Positions 26,444 to 62,677 of a DNA stretch of 64,000 bases are shown here, piece after piece (the first letter of the stretch is position 1; the number at the start of each line of letters is the position of its first letter). Under the pieces are notes generated by a model. That model ran no database searches. It was not told the DNA's origin and was given only the letters and a program-made list of their open reading frames with translations. The stretch lies in the NCBI GenBank assembly GCA_013696965.1, contig JACCXN010000035.1, positions 14,393 to 78,392 of the forward strand, given 5' to 3'. The translations under genes were made by a program, and so were the position numbers. This DNA is from Bacteroidota bacterium (lineage in GTDB: Bacteria; Bacteroidota; Bacteroidia; JACCXN01).

Positions 26444-28204
26444 ATGTACGATATAATTGAGTTGAATAGTAAACTTGTGAGTGAGCTTAGAGATATAGCA
26501 AAAAACTTAAACATTCCCAAATTCGATACCCTAAAAAAACAGGAATTGGTATATCAGATATTAGATTATCAAGCCATAAAATCCGTTAAAAAAGAAGACT
26601 TTACAGAATCAAAATCTGAAAAAAGACCAATAGAAAAGCCAAGAATTCCAAGAAAAAGTTTTGTTTCTAAAAGCACTCCAGATCACCATTCCCAGGTAAG
26701 TACAGAAACAAATGAAATTGAACGGGTTAAACCTCCTTCAGAAGTTGCCGACAATTCAGATTACAGGGATTTTGGAAATAAAGCAAAACCAGAATCTGAG
26801 AAACCTTTGGTGGAAATAGAAGCTCCATTGGAAATTGAAAGCAATAAAAATATTCCTCAAGAGATTGGTTCATCTGATGTGCAGAGAGAAAGAAAATTTC
26901 CTGAGCAAAAAAAACCGGGACAGTTTAAAAACCCGAACCAAAACCCGAACCAAAATTTAAACCTTAATCCAAACCAAAACCCTAATCCAAACCCAAACCA
27001 AAACCCAAATCCAAACCCAAACCAAAATCAAAACCAAAATCCAAACCAAAATCCAAACCAAAATCGCAGAAATGAACCTTTGTTTAATTTTGATGGGATC
27101 ATTATTAGTGAAGGAGTTCTAGAGATAATGCCGGATGGTTATGGATTTTTAAGGTCATCAGATTACAATTACCTGAATTCTCCAGATGATATTTATGTTT
27201 CCCAATCTCAAATTAAATTATTTGGTTTAAAAACCGGAGATACTGTAAAAGGAAGTGTACGCCCACCAAAAGAAGGTGAAAAATATTTTCCACTTATTAA
27301 AGTAGATAAAATAAATGGACAGGATCCTGCCATTGTGAGAGATCGTGTACCCTTTGATTACCTTACACCCTTGTTTCCAGAGCAAAGATTGCAACTGACT
27401 TCCAAAAGAAGTTCCCAGTCCATGCGCATAATGGATATGTTTACCCCTATTGGTAAAGGACAGCGTGGATTAATTGTTGCTCAACCTAAGACAGGAAAAA
27501 CGACTCTTCTGAAAGAGGTGGCTAATGCTATTGCTGAAAATCATCCTGAAGTTTATCTTATTATATTATTGATTGATGAGAGACCTGAAGAGGTTACTGA
27601 TATGGCAAGAAGCGTAAAGGCAGAAGTAATTTCTTCTACTTTTGATGAACCCGCAGAAAGGCATGTTAAGGTTGCAAACATTGTATTGGAAAAAGCAAAG
27701 AGATTGGTTGAATGTGGACATGATGTTGTTATCCTTTTGGATTCAATTACAAGGCTTGCCAGAGCTTATAACACTGTGTCTCCAGCCTCAGGAAAGGTTC
27801 TTTCGGGAGGTGTGGATGCCAATGCACTTCACAAACCAAAAAGATTTTTTGGCGCTGCAAGAAAAATTGAAAATGGAGGTTCCCTTACAATTCTTGCAAC
27901 TGCCCTTACCGATACTGGTTCAAAAATGGATGAAGTTATTTTTGAAGAGTTTAAAGGAACGGGTAATATGGAATTGCAGCTTGATCGTAAACTTTCCAAT
28001 AAGCGATTGTATCCTGCAATTGATATTAATATTTCAAGTACAAGAAGAGAAGATTTGCTTTTAGATAAGGAATCTCTTCAGAGAATTTGGGTTTTAAGAA
28101 ATCTGCTTTCTGATATGAATTCAGTTGAGGCTATGCAGTTCCTACAGGATAGAATGAGAAATACCAAGACTAATGAGGAGTTCCTAATCTCAATGAACGG
28201 ATAA
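26444..28204 (+). CDS. rho: transcription termination factor Rho with an N-terminal low-complexity insertion domain
   Basis: N-terminal Rho_N helix ([25 protein letters not shown]). OB-fold. Walker [16 protein letters not shown]. Conserved RLARAYN and C-terminal ...[29 protein letters not shown] motifs. Between Rho_N and the OB-fold lies an insertion of about 200 aa that includes NPNQ repeats. Confidence 0.95.
26928..27064 (+). repeat. imperfect hexanucleotide tandem repeat (AAYCCR/AAYCAA) inside rho, encoding an N/P/Q repeat tract
   Basis: The DNA aacccgaaccaaaacccgaaccaaaat...ccaaaccaaaatccaaaccaaaatcgc translates to [45 protein letters not shown]. Confidence 0.9.
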
Positions 28205-32150: not shown

Positions 32151-32799
32151 AATGCTTCTGTATAAGATTAATTTGCAAAAGTACCAATTAGAATTGATTT
32201 TTGATGCTGCAAGATTATTTTATACAGAATATTTATTTTGATTTGCAAATGGGATTTACTAGATAAAGCCACCCAAAAATAGGAGAATCGGATAAGTATA
32301 TAACAAAATTATTTCTTGCATTATTTCTTAAGGATTTATCTATAGCATTTCTGCTACAATCTTTCCTCTCGGACCTTTTCTGCTAAAATATTTTTTTCAA
32401 AAAAACCTTTCTCCCAAAACCTTTTCTCATAGAATATCACCAAGAATCTTGATCAATCAATGATGATACTTTTAGCGTAATGCTTCATTAAACTTTATGC
32501 ATTTCGGTTTACCTTGAATTCGTGTTTCATATTTGATTTGAGCTTATTTTGATTTATATATACCGCTCCGTGCATCGCAATTACGCTTGATTTCGCTATA
32601 AACCACTGATATATCAACTCTGATTATTTTTGCAATAGAAGATTTTGATTCTCTTTCTTGTAACAATACCTCATTTTTACACCTTTGCTCTTGTGAAAGA
32701 TGTGACATTACAACTTTATTTTTGGCGATTTATCGGGGTAAAATAACTACTTTCCAAGAAACAGAGAGGGAAATTTTATAATTTTCCTCCTGTTTTTAT

Positions 32800-32926
32800 A
32801 TTTATTTTACCTCGCAATCTAAAAGTTGCATTTGTTAGTTGAATCTAATTATTTATTTTACCTCGCAATCTAAAAGTTGCATTTGTTAATTGAATCTAAT
32901 GTTACAATTGTTAATTGAATCTAATT
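32800..32926. repeat. 51-bp direct tandem repeat, two full copies plus a partial third, in the long intergenic region
   Basis: atttattttacctcgcaatctaaaagttgcatttgtta(g/a)ttgaatctaat occurs at 32800 and at 32851. The 3' part, ttgttaattgaatctaat, recurs a third time at 32909. Confidence 0.85.
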
Positions 32927-32943
32927 TTTAAAAAGAACGCCTG

Positions 32944-58865: not shown

Positions 58866-60560
58866 TTATTGATTTAGAATTTCAGTTTCATTTTCAATAT
58901 TAGTCTTTAAAAGATTTTTCTTGTTGTTTTTTAAATCCAAAACCAGACGGGCAATTAAATAATTTATTGCAGCAAAATCCGAAATGCTTGGTAGGAGTTT
59001 GTTTTCAGAAATTCCATCAAAACAAATGTCAAATTCCGGATAATGAATTGCTGTTTTTATGTTGTTATAGCCGGAGTACCAATTGAATGCGGTTTTTATA
59101 TACCTTAAGTATAGATCATCATCAAAAACTTCATAAAATAAGCTCAGGGTAATTATAGTCTCTGTAACTTCTGCAGGTTTATAATCAAAATAGTTTTTTG
59201 AAGTTCCAAATGTTGTATTAGAAACGCAATTCAGGTAGCCCTCTCTAAATGAGTTTGCAATTATCCAATCGAAAGTTACAATTGCAATTACCTTATATAT
59301 TTCAACCCCCGATAATAGATATGCATACAAAAGGGCTTCTGATAATTTTGAGTTCGCAGAATGATAGGAATTTTCAATCCACTTTTGTTCCTCCTCAATT
59401 TGAACCTCTTGATAATATTTTTCAATTAACTTATCTGCAATGATTAGTGCATTTTCTTTTATCCTTTCTTCTGGAAATATAGTATAATAGATATATAGGC
59501 CTTTTAATAGCCCGGCATGGGCAGAAAAGCTGGTAAATGTTTCTGATAATTTTAGAATATTTTGGTAATTGGTTTTTGCCTGGGAATAAAGTTGTACTGG
59601 GATTTTGTCATCTTTTATTGACAATAAGATTGCCATTGCCGAAAATGCAGAAACCATATCTTTTTCTTCTTTTCCCTCCAGGCTTTTATGCATATTTATA
59701 TGCTCCATGTTTTTACAAATGCAGTCATTTATTTCCATAAGAAGTAATTCAATCACTTTAAGACCATAAACAACATTTGTTAGCTTATGATATAAACATA
59801 TTGCATGAATTACTTCTGAATTATGTAATATGGAATTTTCAGAAATAGTATGTTTTTTATTTTGCTCATAGTCCAATGCTTTTCTTAGAATTTCCAAGGA
59901 CAGTGGTGGAACTGTAAATTCAATATTTTTATTTACGGAATATCTAAGAAATAAATCAGCATAAATTAATGCTTCTTTATCTATGGATATTGAGGTGAAA
60001 TTATTTGCTGTAACGCCAATTAAATTCTCATCAAAATTTATTTTTTCATTTACCAATTCAATTTTATCACAAATAATTTCATACTGATTTATTAGGATCT
60101 CTTTATGAAATTTGTTGCCAACAAGGATTACATTTGCCCTTGAAGTAATACTTTTCAATAGTTCTTTAAATCGGTAATCTGCTTTTTCTGGTACTTCATT
60201 TAAAAATAGTAGAATTGGCTTTTTTACCGAATATAAAAGAAACAATAGGTTATCACCATTTTCTCTACCATATAAATTTATATTATGTTGTATAAGCACT
60301 GATGAAATTTGCCCATCCTTATTTATGTTATCGGCTAAATTAAAATACTCCTGCCTTTTTAGAGGATTTAAAACATATTGCACTTCTTTATAATTATCAT
60401 AGGTGAAATTTTCTGAAGTAACGGCACATATTTTAAGTTTAAATGGAGTATTAATTTTTTTATTAAACACATCAAATAAAGTTGCAGAATATTGAGCAAT
60501 TTTATCCTCAGAAGGAGAATAAGGACTAATTAGAAGGATATGTTGATCGAAATTATTCAT
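58866..60560 (-). CDS. hypothetical two-domain protein: N-terminal Rossmann/glycosyltransferase-like region and C-terminal all-alpha (alpha/alpha toroid-like) region
   Basis: 564 aa with no confident motif. The N-terminal part alternates beta-alpha (HILLISPY..., KKPILLFLNEV..., ANVILVGNKF). The C-terminal ~300 aa are helical with spaced aromatic/Gly blocks (FSAHAGLLKGLYIYY, FDWIIANSF). Its start overlaps the upstream alpha/beta hydrolase stop by 8 nt. Confidence 0.35.
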   Translation of the reverse strand: MNNFDQHILLISPYSPSEDKIAQYSATLFDVFNKKINTPFKLKICAVTSENFTYDNYKEVQYVLNPLKRQEYFNLADNINKDGQISSVLIQHNINLYGRENGDNLLFLLYSVKKPILLFLNEVPEKADYRFKELLKSITSRANVILVGNKFHKEILINQYEIICDKIELVNEKINFDENLIGVTANNFTSISIDKEALIYADLFLRYSVNKNIEFTVPPLSLEILRKALDYEQNKKHTISENSILHNSEVIHAICLYHKLTNVVYGLKVIELLLMEINDCICKNMEHINMHKSLEGKEEKDMVSAFSAMAILLSIKDDKIPVQLYSQAKTNYQNILKLSETFTSFSAHAGLLKGLYIYYTIFPEERIKENALIIADKLIEKYYQEVQIEEEQKWIENSYHSANSKLSEALLYAYLLSGVEIYKVIAIVTFDWIIANSFREGYLNCVSNTTFGTSKNYFDYKPAEVTETIITLSLFYEVFDDDLYLRYIKTAFNWYSGYNNIKTAIHYPEFDICFDGISENKLLPSISDFAAINYLIARLVLDLKNNKKNLLKTNIENETEILNQ

Positions 60561-61437
60561 TTGCTGTTTTGCTTAATTTTTCCATTAAAATTTCTATGGG
60601 GTTTGAAATGATTATTTGGTTAAAATTTTTTGTGAGAAATGCTTTGATTAGCCTGTTAAATTCATTGGGATTCTCAAGGTTGGATAAATAAAAAGCATGT
60701 TTTATAATATGCAATTGAGAACCAGTAATAAAGTAATTAAGATATTGTGAATCTACAGGTGGGGAATCATTGTCCTTTTCTCCTGCAAGGATTAAAGTTG
60801 GTATTTTAATATTTTTAAGACTCTCGCTGCTGTCCATTCTAGAGGCCAGCGCAAGCATAGTACCACATATACCCAATAGGGAGTTAGATTCTAAATTTTC
60901 CCTTGTTTTTATTAATATATCCTTATGGTTATCATTTGACTCAATGCTTAATAGCCCTTCTAATATGTTATCCGAGAAGAATTCCTCGCCTTTTGCTTTC
61001 ACATTTTTAATGAACTCAAATCTTTTAATTTTTTCCTTATTGCTATCTGCATAACTTTTAGTATCACAAAGAATGAGACCTTGTATTCTTTCAGGAAACA
61101 ACTCAACTGCTCTTATCGCAATGTATCCACCCATAGATATTCCACAAAGGATTACCTTTTGTATCTTCAGATGATCCATGAGTGCAATAAGATCATCCAC
61201 AAAAAGATCAATATTGTACAATCCATCTGAAACTCCACTCGATCCATGCCCTCTTATATCATAGGATACTACTTGATAATCCTTCGATAAAAACTCAATC
61301 TGTTCATTCCACATGGATTTGTTCAAACCAAGGGTGTGAATTAATACAAGGGGCGGAAATGAATCCCTGCCTGTAATTGAATAACAGAGAAGATTGTTAT
61401 TGATCTGCACATAATTTTCTGTAACAATTGTATTCAT
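60553..61437 (-). CDS. alpha/beta-fold hydrolase
   Basis: 294 aa. LVLIHTLG. Nucleophile elbow GISMGG. C-terminal His/Asp region typical of the esterase/haloperoxidase-like family. Confidence 0.85.
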   Translation of the reverse strand: MNTIVTENYVQINNNLLCYSITGRDSFPPLVLIHTLGLNKSMWNEQIEFLSKDYQVVSYDIRGHGSSGVSDGLYNIDLFVDDLIALMDHLKIQKVILCGISMGGYIAIRAVELFPERIQGLILCDTKSYADSNKEKIKRFEFIKNVKAKGEEFFSDNILEGLLSIESNDNHKDILIKTRENLESNSLLGICGTMLALASRMDSSESLKNIKIPTLILAGEKDNDSPPVDSQYLNYFITGSQLHIIKHAFYLSNLENPNEFNRLIKAFLTKNFNQIIISNPIEILMEKLSKTANE

Positions 61438-61481
61438 AAGCTGATTTTTATTAGGTCATTGTTAAATATTGTTTTATATAT

Positions 61482-61685
61482 TTTCATATGTATATAATTT
61501 GTTTTTTAATAGTCATCCCGATTTATCGGGAGCCAGGTTATCTTCATTAGTGTTTGTGCACTGTTCGGTGCATGGCTATTTCATATGTATATAATTTGTT
61601 TTTTAATTGACATCCCGATTTATCGGGATAGCCATGTTATATTCATTAGCGTTTGTGAACGGTTCGTGCATGGCTATTTCATATT
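61482..61685. repeat. 97-bp direct tandem repeat (two copies plus the start of a third), each copy carrying a perfect 16-bp palindrome TCCCGATTTATCGGGA
   Basis: Copy 1 begins tttcatatgtatataatttgttttttaat at 61482 and copy 2 at 61579. The palindromes lie at 61516..61531 and 61613..61628. A second short inverted repeat, gcacNgttcgGtgc, occurs in each copy. Confidence 0.85.
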
Positions 61686-62301
61686 ATGATTTGCCAATCT
61701 TAATAAGGTTTATTGCCAGAAAAATTTGCCAAACTGAATTTTTCGCTTCGGCTATGTTGTATAATTTTCCTGCAAGCCTATAATCATCAATGATTGGTAC
61801 TACTCCCCAATTATGCCTTAAACCCAGGCTAAATCTTTTAAAGTCAGCGGAAGTACCTGCAGAGAATCCATAATCAAAGAATTTAAAACTGTTTATTGTT
61901 ATGTTCTCTCGAAATCCTGGAATGATTGAAGTTATTTGACCATCGGAAAGTATTGAAGCGTAGGGGCCAAAGTGCAAATTAACGGTATTTGTAATATTCA
62001 AAACAAGGTATACTGGCAGCTCAATATAATTTAGGTGATAATCAAAATATTCACTTGAATGCCCCTTTGTATTGTATAACAGTTCTGGTTGAAGCGCTAA
62101 AAATCCGAAAATATTCAGTTTGGCAAAAACACCGGCATTGTAACCTGCATTGAATTGATTAATCCTTAGGTTTTCAATGCCAATATTAAAATGAGTCAGA
62201 TTAAATCCTCCCTTAATTCCAAGTTGTAATTGCCCATAACCTATTTGGATGGTTAGTAAAAAAAATAGTACAATAAGGCTTGCAAAGGGAATTTTTTTCA
62301 T
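61684..62301 (-). CDS. outer-membrane beta-barrel protein (porin-family / OmpW-PorT-like small barrel)
   Basis: 205 aa. Signal peptide ending ...GYGQ. Alternating amphipathic strands. C-terminal ...WQIFLAINLIKIGKS lacks a strict terminal Phe, but the overall pattern fits the small OMP beta-barrel families of Bacteroidota. Confidence 0.65.
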   Translation of the reverse strand: MKKIPFASLIVLFFLLTIQIGYGQLQLGIKGGFNLTHFNIGIENLRINQFNAGYNAGVFAKLNIFGFLALQPELLYNTKGHSSEYFDYHLNYIELPVYLVLNITNTVNLHFGPYASILSDGQITSIIPGFRENITINSFKFFDYGFSAGTSADFKRFSLGLRHNWGVVPIIDDYRLAGKLYNIAEAKNSVWQIFLAINLIKIGKS

Positions 62302-62677
62302 TTTTAAATATTCTTAATGTTTTTACCTCTTGAAAATTTTCTGCCAATATTAACAAAGCCCTTATGCTCACTTATTAAGGTTGGGATATGAAAATGCATA
62401 ATGTTTTCTGTGAAAATTTATCCTCATTGTTAGCTAAAGATTCCACAAGATGAAATTTGGCTAAAAAGCCTTCTGTGATATTTACAGCAATGATTTACAC
62501 ATATTGTGGAATTCATTTCACCTTCTTTACACAATATGAATAGCAAGGATTGATGCAAGATTTCTTTCAACACCCCTTAAAATGAATGTTAAAAGGTCTT
62601 GTATTAGTTTGTGAAAAAAGTTTGGCAGTAAATTTCAAGCATAAACAAAGTGATTAGCATTTAATGCAATAAGCTTT

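Follow-up and report, generated by a model that had tools for sequence, protein, structure and literature searches.

The spacer between an outer-membrane beta-barrel (OMP) gene and an alpha/beta-fold hydrolase gene in the window (the whole 64,000-nt stretch of Bacteroidota DNA analyzed here) probably holds two adjacent copies, alpha and beta, of a dispersed, structured, non-coding repeat of Bacteroidota, which lies in one orientation and docks on start codons. The unit recurs at scattered loci, keeps a fixed orientation, coincides with start codons, fills a site that is empty in relatives, has hairpin arms that covary, carries a 16-nt palindrome only as an option, and lies here in a gap devoid of the promoter motifs searched for. 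Since it brings its own stop codon and leader and sets a new ATG exactly on the start codon, it is read as a dispersed repeat element and not as a regulator-binding site.

The array and the architecture of its units

A preliminary description of this DNA had placed two and a bit copies of a 97-bp tandem repeat in the gap between the OMP gene and the minus-strand hydrolase gene starting at 61437. The repeat is real and the flanking genes stand as described. Positions 61485-61682 are taken up by two units arranged head to tail, 100-101 nt long and with 90% identity in a global alignment (Table 1), and a repeat search resolved three blocks: 50 nt with 96% identity (61482-61531 and 61579-61628, spacing 97), 37 nt with 86% identity (spacing 99), and 19 nt with 100% identity (spacing 98). 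The array is absent from the Tandem Repeats Finder listing of the window because of small indels between the units. Two copies were thus correctly counted, but the additional partial copy amounts to 2 extra flank bases past the shared ATG, and the repeat does not fill the whole gap as had been claimed, 47 nt (61438-61484) being left free before the hydrolase ATG. This spacer was also considered as a decayed third unit and rejected, since it does not score as a degenerate one.

Unit alpha begins 1 nt past the OMP stop codon TAA, and the ATG at 61582-61584 is both the last of unit alpha and the first of unit beta. Against the family profile (nhmmer), unit alpha scored 54.4 bits over the full length 1-93 (E 1e-14) and unit beta 53.0 bits (E 2.7e-14). 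The terminal ATG of the array (61485-61487), which is the last ATG of the beta leader, opens a 17-codon ORF and not the hydrolase gene; the TGA of this ORF overlaps the hydrolase ATG as ATGA. The window locus is atypical in this respect, because elsewhere, at most loci, the gene itself begins with the terminal ATG. The hydrolase and OMP genes probably share a transcript, and a Pfam search with the 564-aa ORF next after it gave no match.

Table 1. Features of the array and of the flanking genes (positions in the window)
Feature	Position	Strand	Basis or remark
Upstream gene, OMP_b-brl_2 outer-membrane beta-barrel protein, 205 aa	61684-62301	-	Pfam 2.7e-14
Unit alpha, adjoining the OMP gene	61582-61682	-	101 nt, ATG to ATG
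ATG AAA TAG, 5' start-Lys-stop of unit alpha	61674-61682	-	sequence
5' arm TAGCCATG, long hairpin of unit alpha	61669-61676	-	RNA fold, arm covariation
3' arm CATGGCTA, long hairpin of unit alpha	61629-61636	-	pairs with TAGCCATG
16-nt palindrome TCCCGATTTATCGGGA in unit alpha	61613-61628		exact match
32-nt leader module of unit alpha, ATGTCAATTAAAAAACAAATTATATACATATG	61582-61613	-	predicted unpaired, ATG at end
Unit beta	61485-61584	-	100 nt
ATG AAA TAG, start-Lys-stop of unit beta	61576-61584	-	sequence
5' arm AGCCATG, long hairpin of unit beta	61571-61577	-	RNA fold
3' arm CCTGGCT, long hairpin of unit beta	61531-61537	-	RNA fold
16-nt palindrome TCCCGATTTATCGGGA in unit beta	61516-61531		exact match
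32-nt leader module of unit beta, ATGACTATTAAAAAACAAATTATATACATATG	61485-61516	-	
17-codon ORF (MKIYKTIFNNDLIKISL) opened by the terminal ATG of the array	61434-61487	-	
Downstream gene, alpha/beta-fold hydrolase, 294 aa	60553-61437	-	
564-aa ORF overlapping the hydrolase gene	58866-60560		

Read on the gene strand, the unit is built of up to four parts. A short start-Lys-stop at the 5' end, ATG AAA followed by TAG, TGA or TAA, caps the old start codon; codon 3 is a stop in 25/33 distinct family units. Behind it come a long imperfect hairpin with arms covarying between loci, then, in some lineages including that of the window, a small GC hairpin corresponding to the 16-nt palindrome, and finally an A-rich 32-nt leader, predicted to be unstructured, with a new ATG at its end. 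Family units are about 80-120 nt long. By RNA minimum-free-energy folding, unit alpha reaches -19.2 kcal/mol (z -2.8), and unit beta, the arms of which pair with one mismatch, -17.1 kcal/mol (z -2.9).

In the leader of unit alpha, A is found at -6, -11, -12, and -13 and no AUG occurs from -21 to -1, and the family leader module has A at 0, -6, -12, and -13 and is AUG-free over the same interval. Such A positions and an AUG-free stretch from -21 to -1 are measured determinants of efficient initiation in F. johnsoniae (PMC6847099). The module resembles the Shine-Dalgarno-independent initiation regions of Bacteroidetes (Baez et al., 2019, PMC6847099) in its A at 0, -6, -12, and -13, its predicted lack of pairing, and its AUG-free stretch, but it has C, not A, at -3, and it is a fixed 32-nt sequence across orders and part of a repeat, not a loose consensus. 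The leader of 22/33 units can be read as an ORF of 10 codons, with its stop and the start codon overlapping in ATGA. Solo leader modules without the hairpin exist, and therefore the leader may have a life of its own.

Dispersal of the family and docking on start codons

The same contig carries a second array about 1.8-2.3 kb beyond the window end, with three good units and one degenerate unit in the order alpha-beta-alpha-degenerate, between the genes for a hybrid histidine kinase and a response regulator. The ATG AAA TAG of the element itself terminates the kinase ORF, and the last ATG of the array is the ATG of the response regulator. A stretch of about 68 kb on the source contig contains six units in two arrays. 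Units of the same subtype are 94% identical across the two arrays, while neighbors within an array share 86-90%; unit beta is 94% identical to a beta-type unit of the second array versus 90% to unit alpha.

The family extends well beyond this contig. A genome scan detected the unit on three contigs of one related Bacteroidota MAG and a short unit in a Rikenellaceae MAG, and a metagenome scan yielded 55 loci, 15 of them on 11 contigs of assembly OLLH01, in which at least 8 full and at least 7 partial copies were counted. Further copies were found in Chryseobacterium, in Cytophagales, and in many metagenomes. Most loci were recruited with a 22-mer that includes ATGA, so the sample is biased toward the leader; pattern-independent copies behave alike, and a profile search of the 672 kb of sequence around the loci gave 63 matches, some of which had not been selected by the search pattern. 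All arrays are head to tail, and copies are alike within a genome and different between genomes. The 22-mer had three solo matches on viral contigs, with no full unit among them, and no match on plasmids. Most genome-scan matches to CCCGATAAATCGGG were discarded as unrelated hairpins or terminators, and so was a different 71-nt repeat in Elusimicrobia. The literature, searched by topic and by core sequence, yielded no description of the element.

Most array-terminal units (42/46) lie upstream of a same-strand gene. The terminal ATG opens an ORF of at least 60 aa, or one running off the contig, in 35/45 array-terminal units, against 18.5% for random ATGs; seven further array-terminal units have a same-strand gene 50-206 nt downstream, and only 4 face a convergent gene. 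The ORFs tested, including those for Dps, BshB1, a bleomycin-hydrolase cluster, and a response regulator, are without exception (10/10) called genes with exactly that start. No common function links the downstream genes, which comprise Dps, BshB1, a response regulator, an L25/Ctc-like protein, a hydrolase, and many secreted proteins. The left flanks carry the A-rich signature at -13 to -8 of native initiation regions, and a single orientation relative to the ATG is kept in all filled sites.

The closest homologue of the hydrolase has 53% identity, and there is thus no close orthologous promoter to compare; a syntenic relative and the Chryseobacterium dps site were used instead. At dps, Chryseobacterium sp. 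G0162 (CP033922.1) has an empty site, ...gataaactt ATG AAAAACGCT, and four other Chryseobacterium-type contigs have a filled one, ...aataaactt ATG (84 nt) ATG AAAAACGCT; the site is also empty in Epilithonimonas, Bergeyella, and other Chryseobacterium. The comparison shows a precise insertion at the start codon. The ATG on both sides of the insert fits a 3-nt duplication and, equally, insertion beside the ATG of an element that itself ends in ATG. The OMP-hydrolase gap measures 246 nt in the window versus 10 nt in the syntenic relative, where gaps of 10 nt and 45 nt contain no unit, and the window array has pushed apart two genes that nearly abut in that relative.

Hairpin fold, palindrome, and rival explanations

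Misaligned 3' arms in a plain MAFFT alignment kept RNAalifold from predicting any pairs, and an own-versus-swapped arm test and a fixed-register count were used in its place. In the alignment-free arm test, pairing between own arms gave -6.67 kcal/mol versus -3.97 kcal/mol for arms swapped between units (0/20,000 permutations). In the fixed-register count with trimmed arms, 69.6% of cells were paired in the true register versus at most 45% in slid registers, and 18 cells had changed on both sides in the true register, a number reached in 0/500 shuffles. An A.C mismatch in the basal stem is conserved in 25/27 units and would be G.U on the opposite strand; the G.U versus A.C counts set neither the folding strand nor RNA versus single-stranded DNA. 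The covariance models of Rfam 15, run at permissive thresholds on the window and nine canonical-unit loci, gave nothing credible over any unit, the best match overlapping a window unit being M-box with 14.1 bits versus a threshold of 44. A conserved internal RATGAAT was considered as hammerhead-like or C/D-box-like; both readings were dropped, since by eye the flanking helices and motifs that they require were not seen and no Rfam ribozyme family matched.

Each copy contains the perfect palindrome TCCCGATTTATCGGGA that had been described, and it occurs exactly twice in the 64 kb. With up to 3 mismatches five matches were obtained (0.32 expected by chance; 0/100 shuffles reach 5), four of which are the two palindromic sites on both strands; the near-match at 32723 is unrelated. 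In the RNA fold the palindrome forms 5-6 base pairs around a 4-nt loop, and it stands in place of the ATTCCAT of canonical units, which is the 3' strand of the basal stem. On the gene strand it runs into TGACTATTAAAAAAC and on the other strand into GCCAGGTTATC, without a direct T run, and an intrinsic terminator scan did not flag it. Most family units lack it, and at one locus of the same family (L082) it takes 16 nt, not 14 nt, between the same arms, with a center of 4 nt versus 2 nt in most copies, while the copy at another (L012) is displaced and also flipped. The palindrome is an optional GC hairpin module. The weaker inverted repeat gcacNgttcgGtgc does exist, though just one of the two units has it, and it forms the top of the longer hairpin, not a conserved second site. 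A Bacteroidetes TAnnTTTG box was found on neither strand of 61380-61760, and no sigma-70-like promoter was found in the OMP-hydrolase gap, the one sigma-70-like site in 61300-62500 (6.4 expected by chance) lying inside the OMP gene.

The preliminary description had interpreted the palindromes as duplicated operators of a dimeric transcription factor for the hydrolase operon, with the 97-bp spacing serving cooperative binding or looping. Such operators are very unlikely, even though the palindrome is perfect (7-2-7), is confined to this array within the 64 kb, and lies upstream of a gene. What unrelated loci conserve is the entire 100-nt unit and not the palindrome alone, and dozens of unrelated sites carry the unit in front of genes that have no relation to one another, an outcome that the description itself had named as contrary to its proposal. 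The other such outcome, absence of the palindrome from the orthologous locus, was also found: this locus in another sample (L005) has ATACCAT where the window has the palindrome, and the syntenic relative (L087), with OMP and hydrolase 10 nt apart, has none. The palindrome is missing in most units, and its center of 2 or 4 nt and its flipping and displacement are variations that a hairpin tolerates and a two-half-site operator does not. The gap has neither of the promoter motifs, and the hydrolase gene is probably transcribed together with the OMP gene. A small repetitive extragenic element, offered as a fallback, was right as to kind but missed the docking on start codons. A purely local tandem duplication of the OMP-hydrolase spacer by replication slippage would account for adjacent copies being 90% identical, but each unit finds its closer counterpart in the other array (94%) and not in its neighbor, homologous units exist in other genomes, and the spacer of the relative has just 10 nt. 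The chance of this reading is vanishingly small, and it is refuted by the profile matches, the second array, and the 94% cross-array identity.

Two further readings were weighed. In one, the unit is an immobile cis-regulatory leader RNA, a translational switch or stabilizer conserved by gene-by-gene selection, and the arrays are local duplications. Arm covariation indicates selection for the fold, the element at dps lies in the transcribed leader downstream of the TAACTTTG-type box of the empty site, ATTCCAT overlaps a CATATG able to pair with the CATATG of the start codon so that two exclusive folds are possible, and the leader ORF with its ATGA overlap recurs in two thirds of the units (22/33). 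Even so, this reading is unlikely, since the downstream genes share no function, copies resemble each other within a genome and differ between genomes, the element is present or absent at dps among close relatives, assemblies break at it, and Rfam has no matching family; nor is it exclusive, as a mobile element can act in RNA too. In the other, the functional strand is the plus strand of the window, and each unit encodes a small antisense RNA or a terminator of antisense transcription across gene starts. The basal-stem A.C mismatch (25/27 units), which is G.U on that strand, and a plus-strand hairpin with a T-rich tail at 61554-61575 (terminator scan) speak for it; however, neither strand has a promoter motif, the terminator-like site is seen in one unit only with 0.9 expected by chance, and the tight link to the ATG, the stop codon, and the leader of the sense strand is left unexplained. 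We regard it as very unlikely.

Known element classes and a possible mode of mobility

The dispersed repeat recalls several known classes without coinciding with any of those compared. REPs of Proteobacteria, which are mobilized by RAYT Y1 transposases, stabilize upstream mRNA and affect translation. Like REPs and BIMEs, the present units are short, non-coding, hairpin-forming, multicopy, often clustered, and located between genes of one operon, with copies homogeneous within a genome and a hairpin just past a stop codon. In contrast, they measure 80-120 nt versus 20-40 nt for REPs, are arranged head to tail where BIME orientation alternates, begin with ATGAAAT, none of the 33 aligned ones showing a GTAG/CGTC head, and are fixed to the nucleotide on a start codon while carrying a leader and an ATG; we know of no RAYT for them. 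Miniature derivatives of IS200/IS605 (PATE) likewise have no terminal inverted repeats and a hairpin near one end, and the 'peel and paste' mode of that family similarly gives strictly oriented insertion beside a short fixed sequence (here ATG), with the element's own end resembling the target. However, IS200/IS605-type elements have subterminal hairpins at both ends, which TnpA recognizes, whereas the present units have one near the 5' end alone and 32 nt at the 3' end that are predicted to be unpaired, and to our knowledge a start codon in its initiation context is unreported as a target for this family.

Correia elements of Neisseria, ERIC, BOX of Streptococcus pneumoniae, and RUP are also repeats of about 100 nt, co-transcribed with their neighbors, with stable RNA hairpins and modular, optional or repeated sub-modules. 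They differ in having terminal inverted repeats and/or TA target duplications, and in being inserted at variable distances from genes and in both orientations; none of them regenerates a start codon. A MITE does not fit either, as the 5' end ATGAAATAGCC is by eye unrelated to the reverse-complemented 3' end CATATGTATAT, and there are thus no terminal inverted repeats. A CRISPR array was rejected because similarity spans the whole unit at 90% with no unrelated spacers; the only Rfam CRISPR match is at chance level and elsewhere (20 bits versus a threshold of 35).

It is a tentative possibility, which we would put somewhat below even, that the repeat represents an undescribed class of small mobile element that recognizes the translation-initiation context and inserts exactly at the start codon, and that it acts as a portable intercistronic insulator with add-on GC hairpins. 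As the element brings its own stop codon, hairpin, and ready leader with ATG, little harm would be done to the host gene. On the favored reading as a docking repeat, an insertion provides its gene with a start codon and with a leader fit for Shine-Dalgarno-free translation, and puts a stop codon and a hairpin into the intercistronic RNA. The 3' end of the element recreates an A-rich leader followed by ATG, on which new copies could settle head to tail; the arrays would be explained in this way. The element may be, or may have been, mobilized in trans by an enzyme. A single-strand transposase of the HUH/Y1 type would be our guess, because terminal inverted repeats are absent, a hairpin is present, and insertion is strictly oriented beside a short fixed sequence. 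No transposase or other mobilizing gene was found in the 672 kb of copy neighborhoods, where an approximate IS200-type TnpA probe gave a best E of 0.56 by tblastn, a weak test given this scope. Within mRNA the element would form an intercistronic stop-hairpin-restart cassette, which could stabilize the upstream message and uncouple or retune downstream translation.

If confirmed, such an element would mean that selfish DNA can live in compact genomes by sitting on the start codon and replacing what it disrupts. It would also provide a natural, repeatedly tested cassette for Shine-Dalgarno-free initiation in Bacteroidota, and since it occurs in cultured Chryseobacterium, the rules of this poorly understood initiation become directly testable. 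It may alter expression inside operons; in the source genome it lies between a sensor kinase and its response regulator as well as between the OMP and hydrolase genes. The decoy ATGs that it creates could mislead start-codon calls. Short-read assemblies break at the element: eight k-mer-assembled contigs of the window locus end inside the array, six on the hydrolase side and two on the OMP side.

Arrays at the window locus

The repeat between the OMP and hydrolase genes belongs to a structured repeat family that docks on start codons and is spread over several Bacteroidota orders, which upholds and refines the fallback suggestion of the preliminary description, a repetitive element. Two units, alpha and beta, lie head-to-tail there with 90% global identity. 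A repeat search of the window gave three collinear blocks (50 nt, 96%; 37 nt, 86%; 19 nt, 100%) at spacings of 97-99 nt, and the palindrome TCCCGATTTATCGGGA has two exact matches in the 64 kb, at 61516 and 61613 only; the tandem repeat with perfect palindromes first noticed here is therefore real. Of the "two and a bit" copies then counted, exactly two units were found and no extra partial one, and the weaker second inverted repeat ascribed to each copy is present in one unit and absent from the other. Tandem Repeats Finder does not list the array in the window because of its small indels. The hydrolase start is not the array-terminal ATG, which instead opens a 17-codon ORF (MKIYKTIFNNDLIKISL); the TGA of this ORF shares an ATGA overlap with the hydrolase ATG, and the ORF may represent either a leader peptide or a remnant. 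Scoring of the 47 nt between array and hydrolase did not identify them as a decayed unit.

A second array of three good units and one degenerate unit is found on the same contig, about 1.8-2.3 kb beyond the right end of the window, flanked by a hybrid histidine kinase and by a response regulator of 169 aa; without the array, the two would stand in one reading frame. Two subtypes alternate in both arrays alike, and identity reaches 94% between same-subtype units of the two arrays but no more than 86-90% between neighbours within one array, so that the arrays are not simple local duplications.

Features of the two arrays and of other repeat-bearing regions
Feature	Position	Strand	Remark
OMP_b-brl_2 gene	61684-62301	-	one flank of array
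Alpha unit	61582-61682	-	ATG to ATG
Beta unit	61485-61584	-	ATG to ATG
Leaders of beta and alpha	61485-61516, 61582-61613	-	32-nt modules
17-codon ORF	61434-61487	-	opened by array-terminal ATG
Alpha/beta-hydrolase gene	60553-61437	-	other flank of array
Second array	L001 (window's own contig):5170-5602, window ~65836-66268		alpha, beta, alpha and degenerate 143-nt unit; profile search
Rho gene	26444-28204	+	
12-nt tandem repeat in Rho gene	26928-27063		11 copies
Gap without long ORFs	32151-32943		800 nt
54-codon ORF	32547-32708	-	weak HTH_38 match
51-nt tandem repeat	32799-32925		2.0-2.4 copies, 98%

Other repeats occur in the window. Translated, the 12-nt repeat AAAACCCAAACC gives a low-complexity NPNQ stretch inserted in Rho between its Rho_N and RNA-binding domains. 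The 51-nt repeat lies within a gap that also contains a 54-codon ORF, probably an IS30-type transposase remnant as judged from its HTH_38 match (23.1 bits, below cut-off).

Dispersal and insertion sites

The unit is dispersed, not local, copies beyond the window array having been found by genome, metagenome and profile HMM searches. A scan of one genome per species with the palindrome plus A-run recovered true homologues from one Bacteroidota MAG, where they lie on three contigs (L012, L015, L026), and from a Rikenellaceae MAG, which has a short unit (L027); the remaining matches were rejected as unrelated hairpins. In metagenomes, a 22-mer taken from the conserved end of the unit matched at 55 loci, 15 of them on 11 contigs of one assembly, OLLH01; most loci were recovered via a pattern containing the leader. 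A profile HMM of 33 distinct full units (alignment A1) had 63 matches in the 672 kb of collected loci, including some copies picked by no search pattern. Eight contigs of the window locus from k-mer assemblies of other samples end within the array (six on the hydrolase side, two on the OMP side), as multicopy repeats cause assembly graphs to do. The element is not described in the literature covered by topic searches and a core-sequence search, and no Rfam family matches it. An unrelated repeat family around CGCCCGATAAATCGGGCAAYTAC was also seen (L016:2257-2500; also L011, L013, L020 and L030); an Elusimicrobia MAG contains a four-copy 71-nt tandem array of it, and MAGs of Nitrospinota and Deltaproteobacteria have similar sites.

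Comparison of filled and empty dps sites shows that the insert coincides with the start codon to the nucleotide and is flanked by ATG at either end: the empty site of Chryseobacterium sp. G0162 (CP033922.1) reads ...gagatatataaaaagataaactt ATG AAAAACGCT, and four other Chryseobacterium-type contigs read ...agagatatcaaaaataaactt ATG, 84 nt of element, ATG AAAAACGCT. The site is also empty in Epilithonimonas, Bergeyella and other Chryseobacterium. For the window locus one syntenic relative was compared (hydrolase 53% identical), in which 10 nt separate the OMP stop from the hydrolase ATG and 45 nt the kinase from the response regulator, with no unit anywhere in 18.6 kb.

Hairpin, leader and start codon

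On the gene strand (the minus strand of the window), a unit consists of ATGAAAT, a variable 5′ stem arm, an apical region with conserved RATGAAT, the 3′ arm, ATTCCAT and ATGACCWTTAAAAAACAAATTATATACATATG in this order, and 25/33 units have a stop (TAG, TGA or TAA) as their third codon. The 5′ ATGAAAT pairs with ATTCCAT, with a conserved A.C mismatch in 25/27 units, and the arms show compensatory changes across loci (AGC/GCT, CGC/GCG, CAC/GTG, CCCGCA/TGCGGG, ACTCATG/CATGAGT, AACC/GGTT). In an alignment-free test of the variable arm parts, mean binding was -6.67 kcal/mol for own arms against -3.97 for arms swapped between units, a mean reached by 0 of 20,000 permutations. With trimmed arms in fixed register, 69.6% of cells were paired in the true register against at most 45% in slid ones, and 18 cells were altered on both sides of the stem, a number reached by 0 of 500 shuffles. 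RNA folding found several single units more stable than shuffles (z about -2.8 to -4.1) and predicted the final 32 nt of the window units to be unpaired. By this covariation, the hairpin is under selection.

The last ATG of the element is, from the ORFs it opens, evidently a start codon. Among array-terminal or solo units, 35 of 45 lead into an ORF that is 60 aa or longer or continues past the contig end, against 18.5% of random ATGs in the same DNA; seven of the remainder have a same-strand gene 50-206 nt downstream, and only four face a convergent gene. All ten tested ORFs have entries in the protein collection that begin at precisely this residue, among them Dps of cultured Chryseobacterium, BshB1, a bleomycin-hydrolase cluster and the response regulator that follows the second array. 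In the 15 nt that precede the first ATG, positions -13 to -8 are rich in A, the signature of native initiation regions in Bacteroidota (PMC6847099). The leader itself has A at 0, -6, -12 and -13 and no AUG from -21 to -1, features that experimentally favour initiation in Flavobacterium johnsoniae (PMC6847099), and C rather than the favoured A at -3. In 22 of the 33 units of A1, the 32-nt leader forms a 10-codon ORF, M-T/S-x-K-K-Q-I-I-Y-I, whose TGA overlaps the gene start codon as ATGA, which suggests termination-reinitiation coupling. The 3′ leader alone (about 22-32 nt), without the hairpin part, stands directly 5′ of start codons at L032, L033, L047, L055, L071, L099-L101 and other loci, in two cases immediately 3′ of a TAnnTTTG promoter box; it may thus spread or persist separately from the full element.

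The palindrome and a putative mode of spread

The palindromes had been proposed as duplicated operators of a dimeric regulator. In canonical units the 3′ strand of the basal stem, ATTCCAT, stands in their place; the window subfamily has CCCGATAAATCGGG instead. The form in L082, A[CCCGATAGCTATCGGG]TCCAT, is intermediate, and its centre measures 4 nt. In L012 a second copy, flipped, stands at another place in the unit, and the OLLH01 units have another GC hairpin, TCCGCCTSAGGCGGA, which lies upstream by a few bases. At the window locus in sample SRR35767030 (L005:1-60), a beta-unit variant has ATACCAT instead of the palindrome, and AAAA in the leader where the window has AAAAAA. That the centre length, position and orientation vary, and that the palindrome can be missing altogether, agrees with an optional hairpin module and not with a two-half-site operator. 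Neither a Bacteroidetes -7 box nor a sigma-70-like promoter was found in the OMP-hydrolase gap, and the operator reading was rejected.

As far as sequence can tell, the comparisons show that a structured repeat has inserted at the exact site of start codons, in a single orientation, and brings a stop codon, a selected hairpin and a leader. It would be mobilised in trans; a single-strand HUH/Y1-type mechanism is the best guess because the element lacks inverted repeats, has a single hairpin and inserts in strict orientation next to a fixed short sequence. An approximate IS200-type TnpA probe found no HUH/Y1-type transposase gene in 672 kb of loci around copies. Arrays would grow because the 3′ end of the element recreates the target. 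On the mRNA, the stop-hairpin-restart arrangement would terminate translation arriving from upstream, as at the second array, where ATG AAA TAG of the element supplies the end of the kinase ORF (...CMK*). Protection of the message upstream and renewed initiation of translation at the new leader may be further effects.

The element differs from REP in lacking a GTAG head and alternating orientation in clusters, from MITEs in lacking terminal inverted repeats, from IS200/IS605 derivatives in having only one structured end, and from CRISPR in having arrays without unrelated spacers. It is closest to transcribed intergenic repeats (REP/BIME, Correia, ERIC and BOX) in its working and to IS200/IS605-type elements in its insertion logic.
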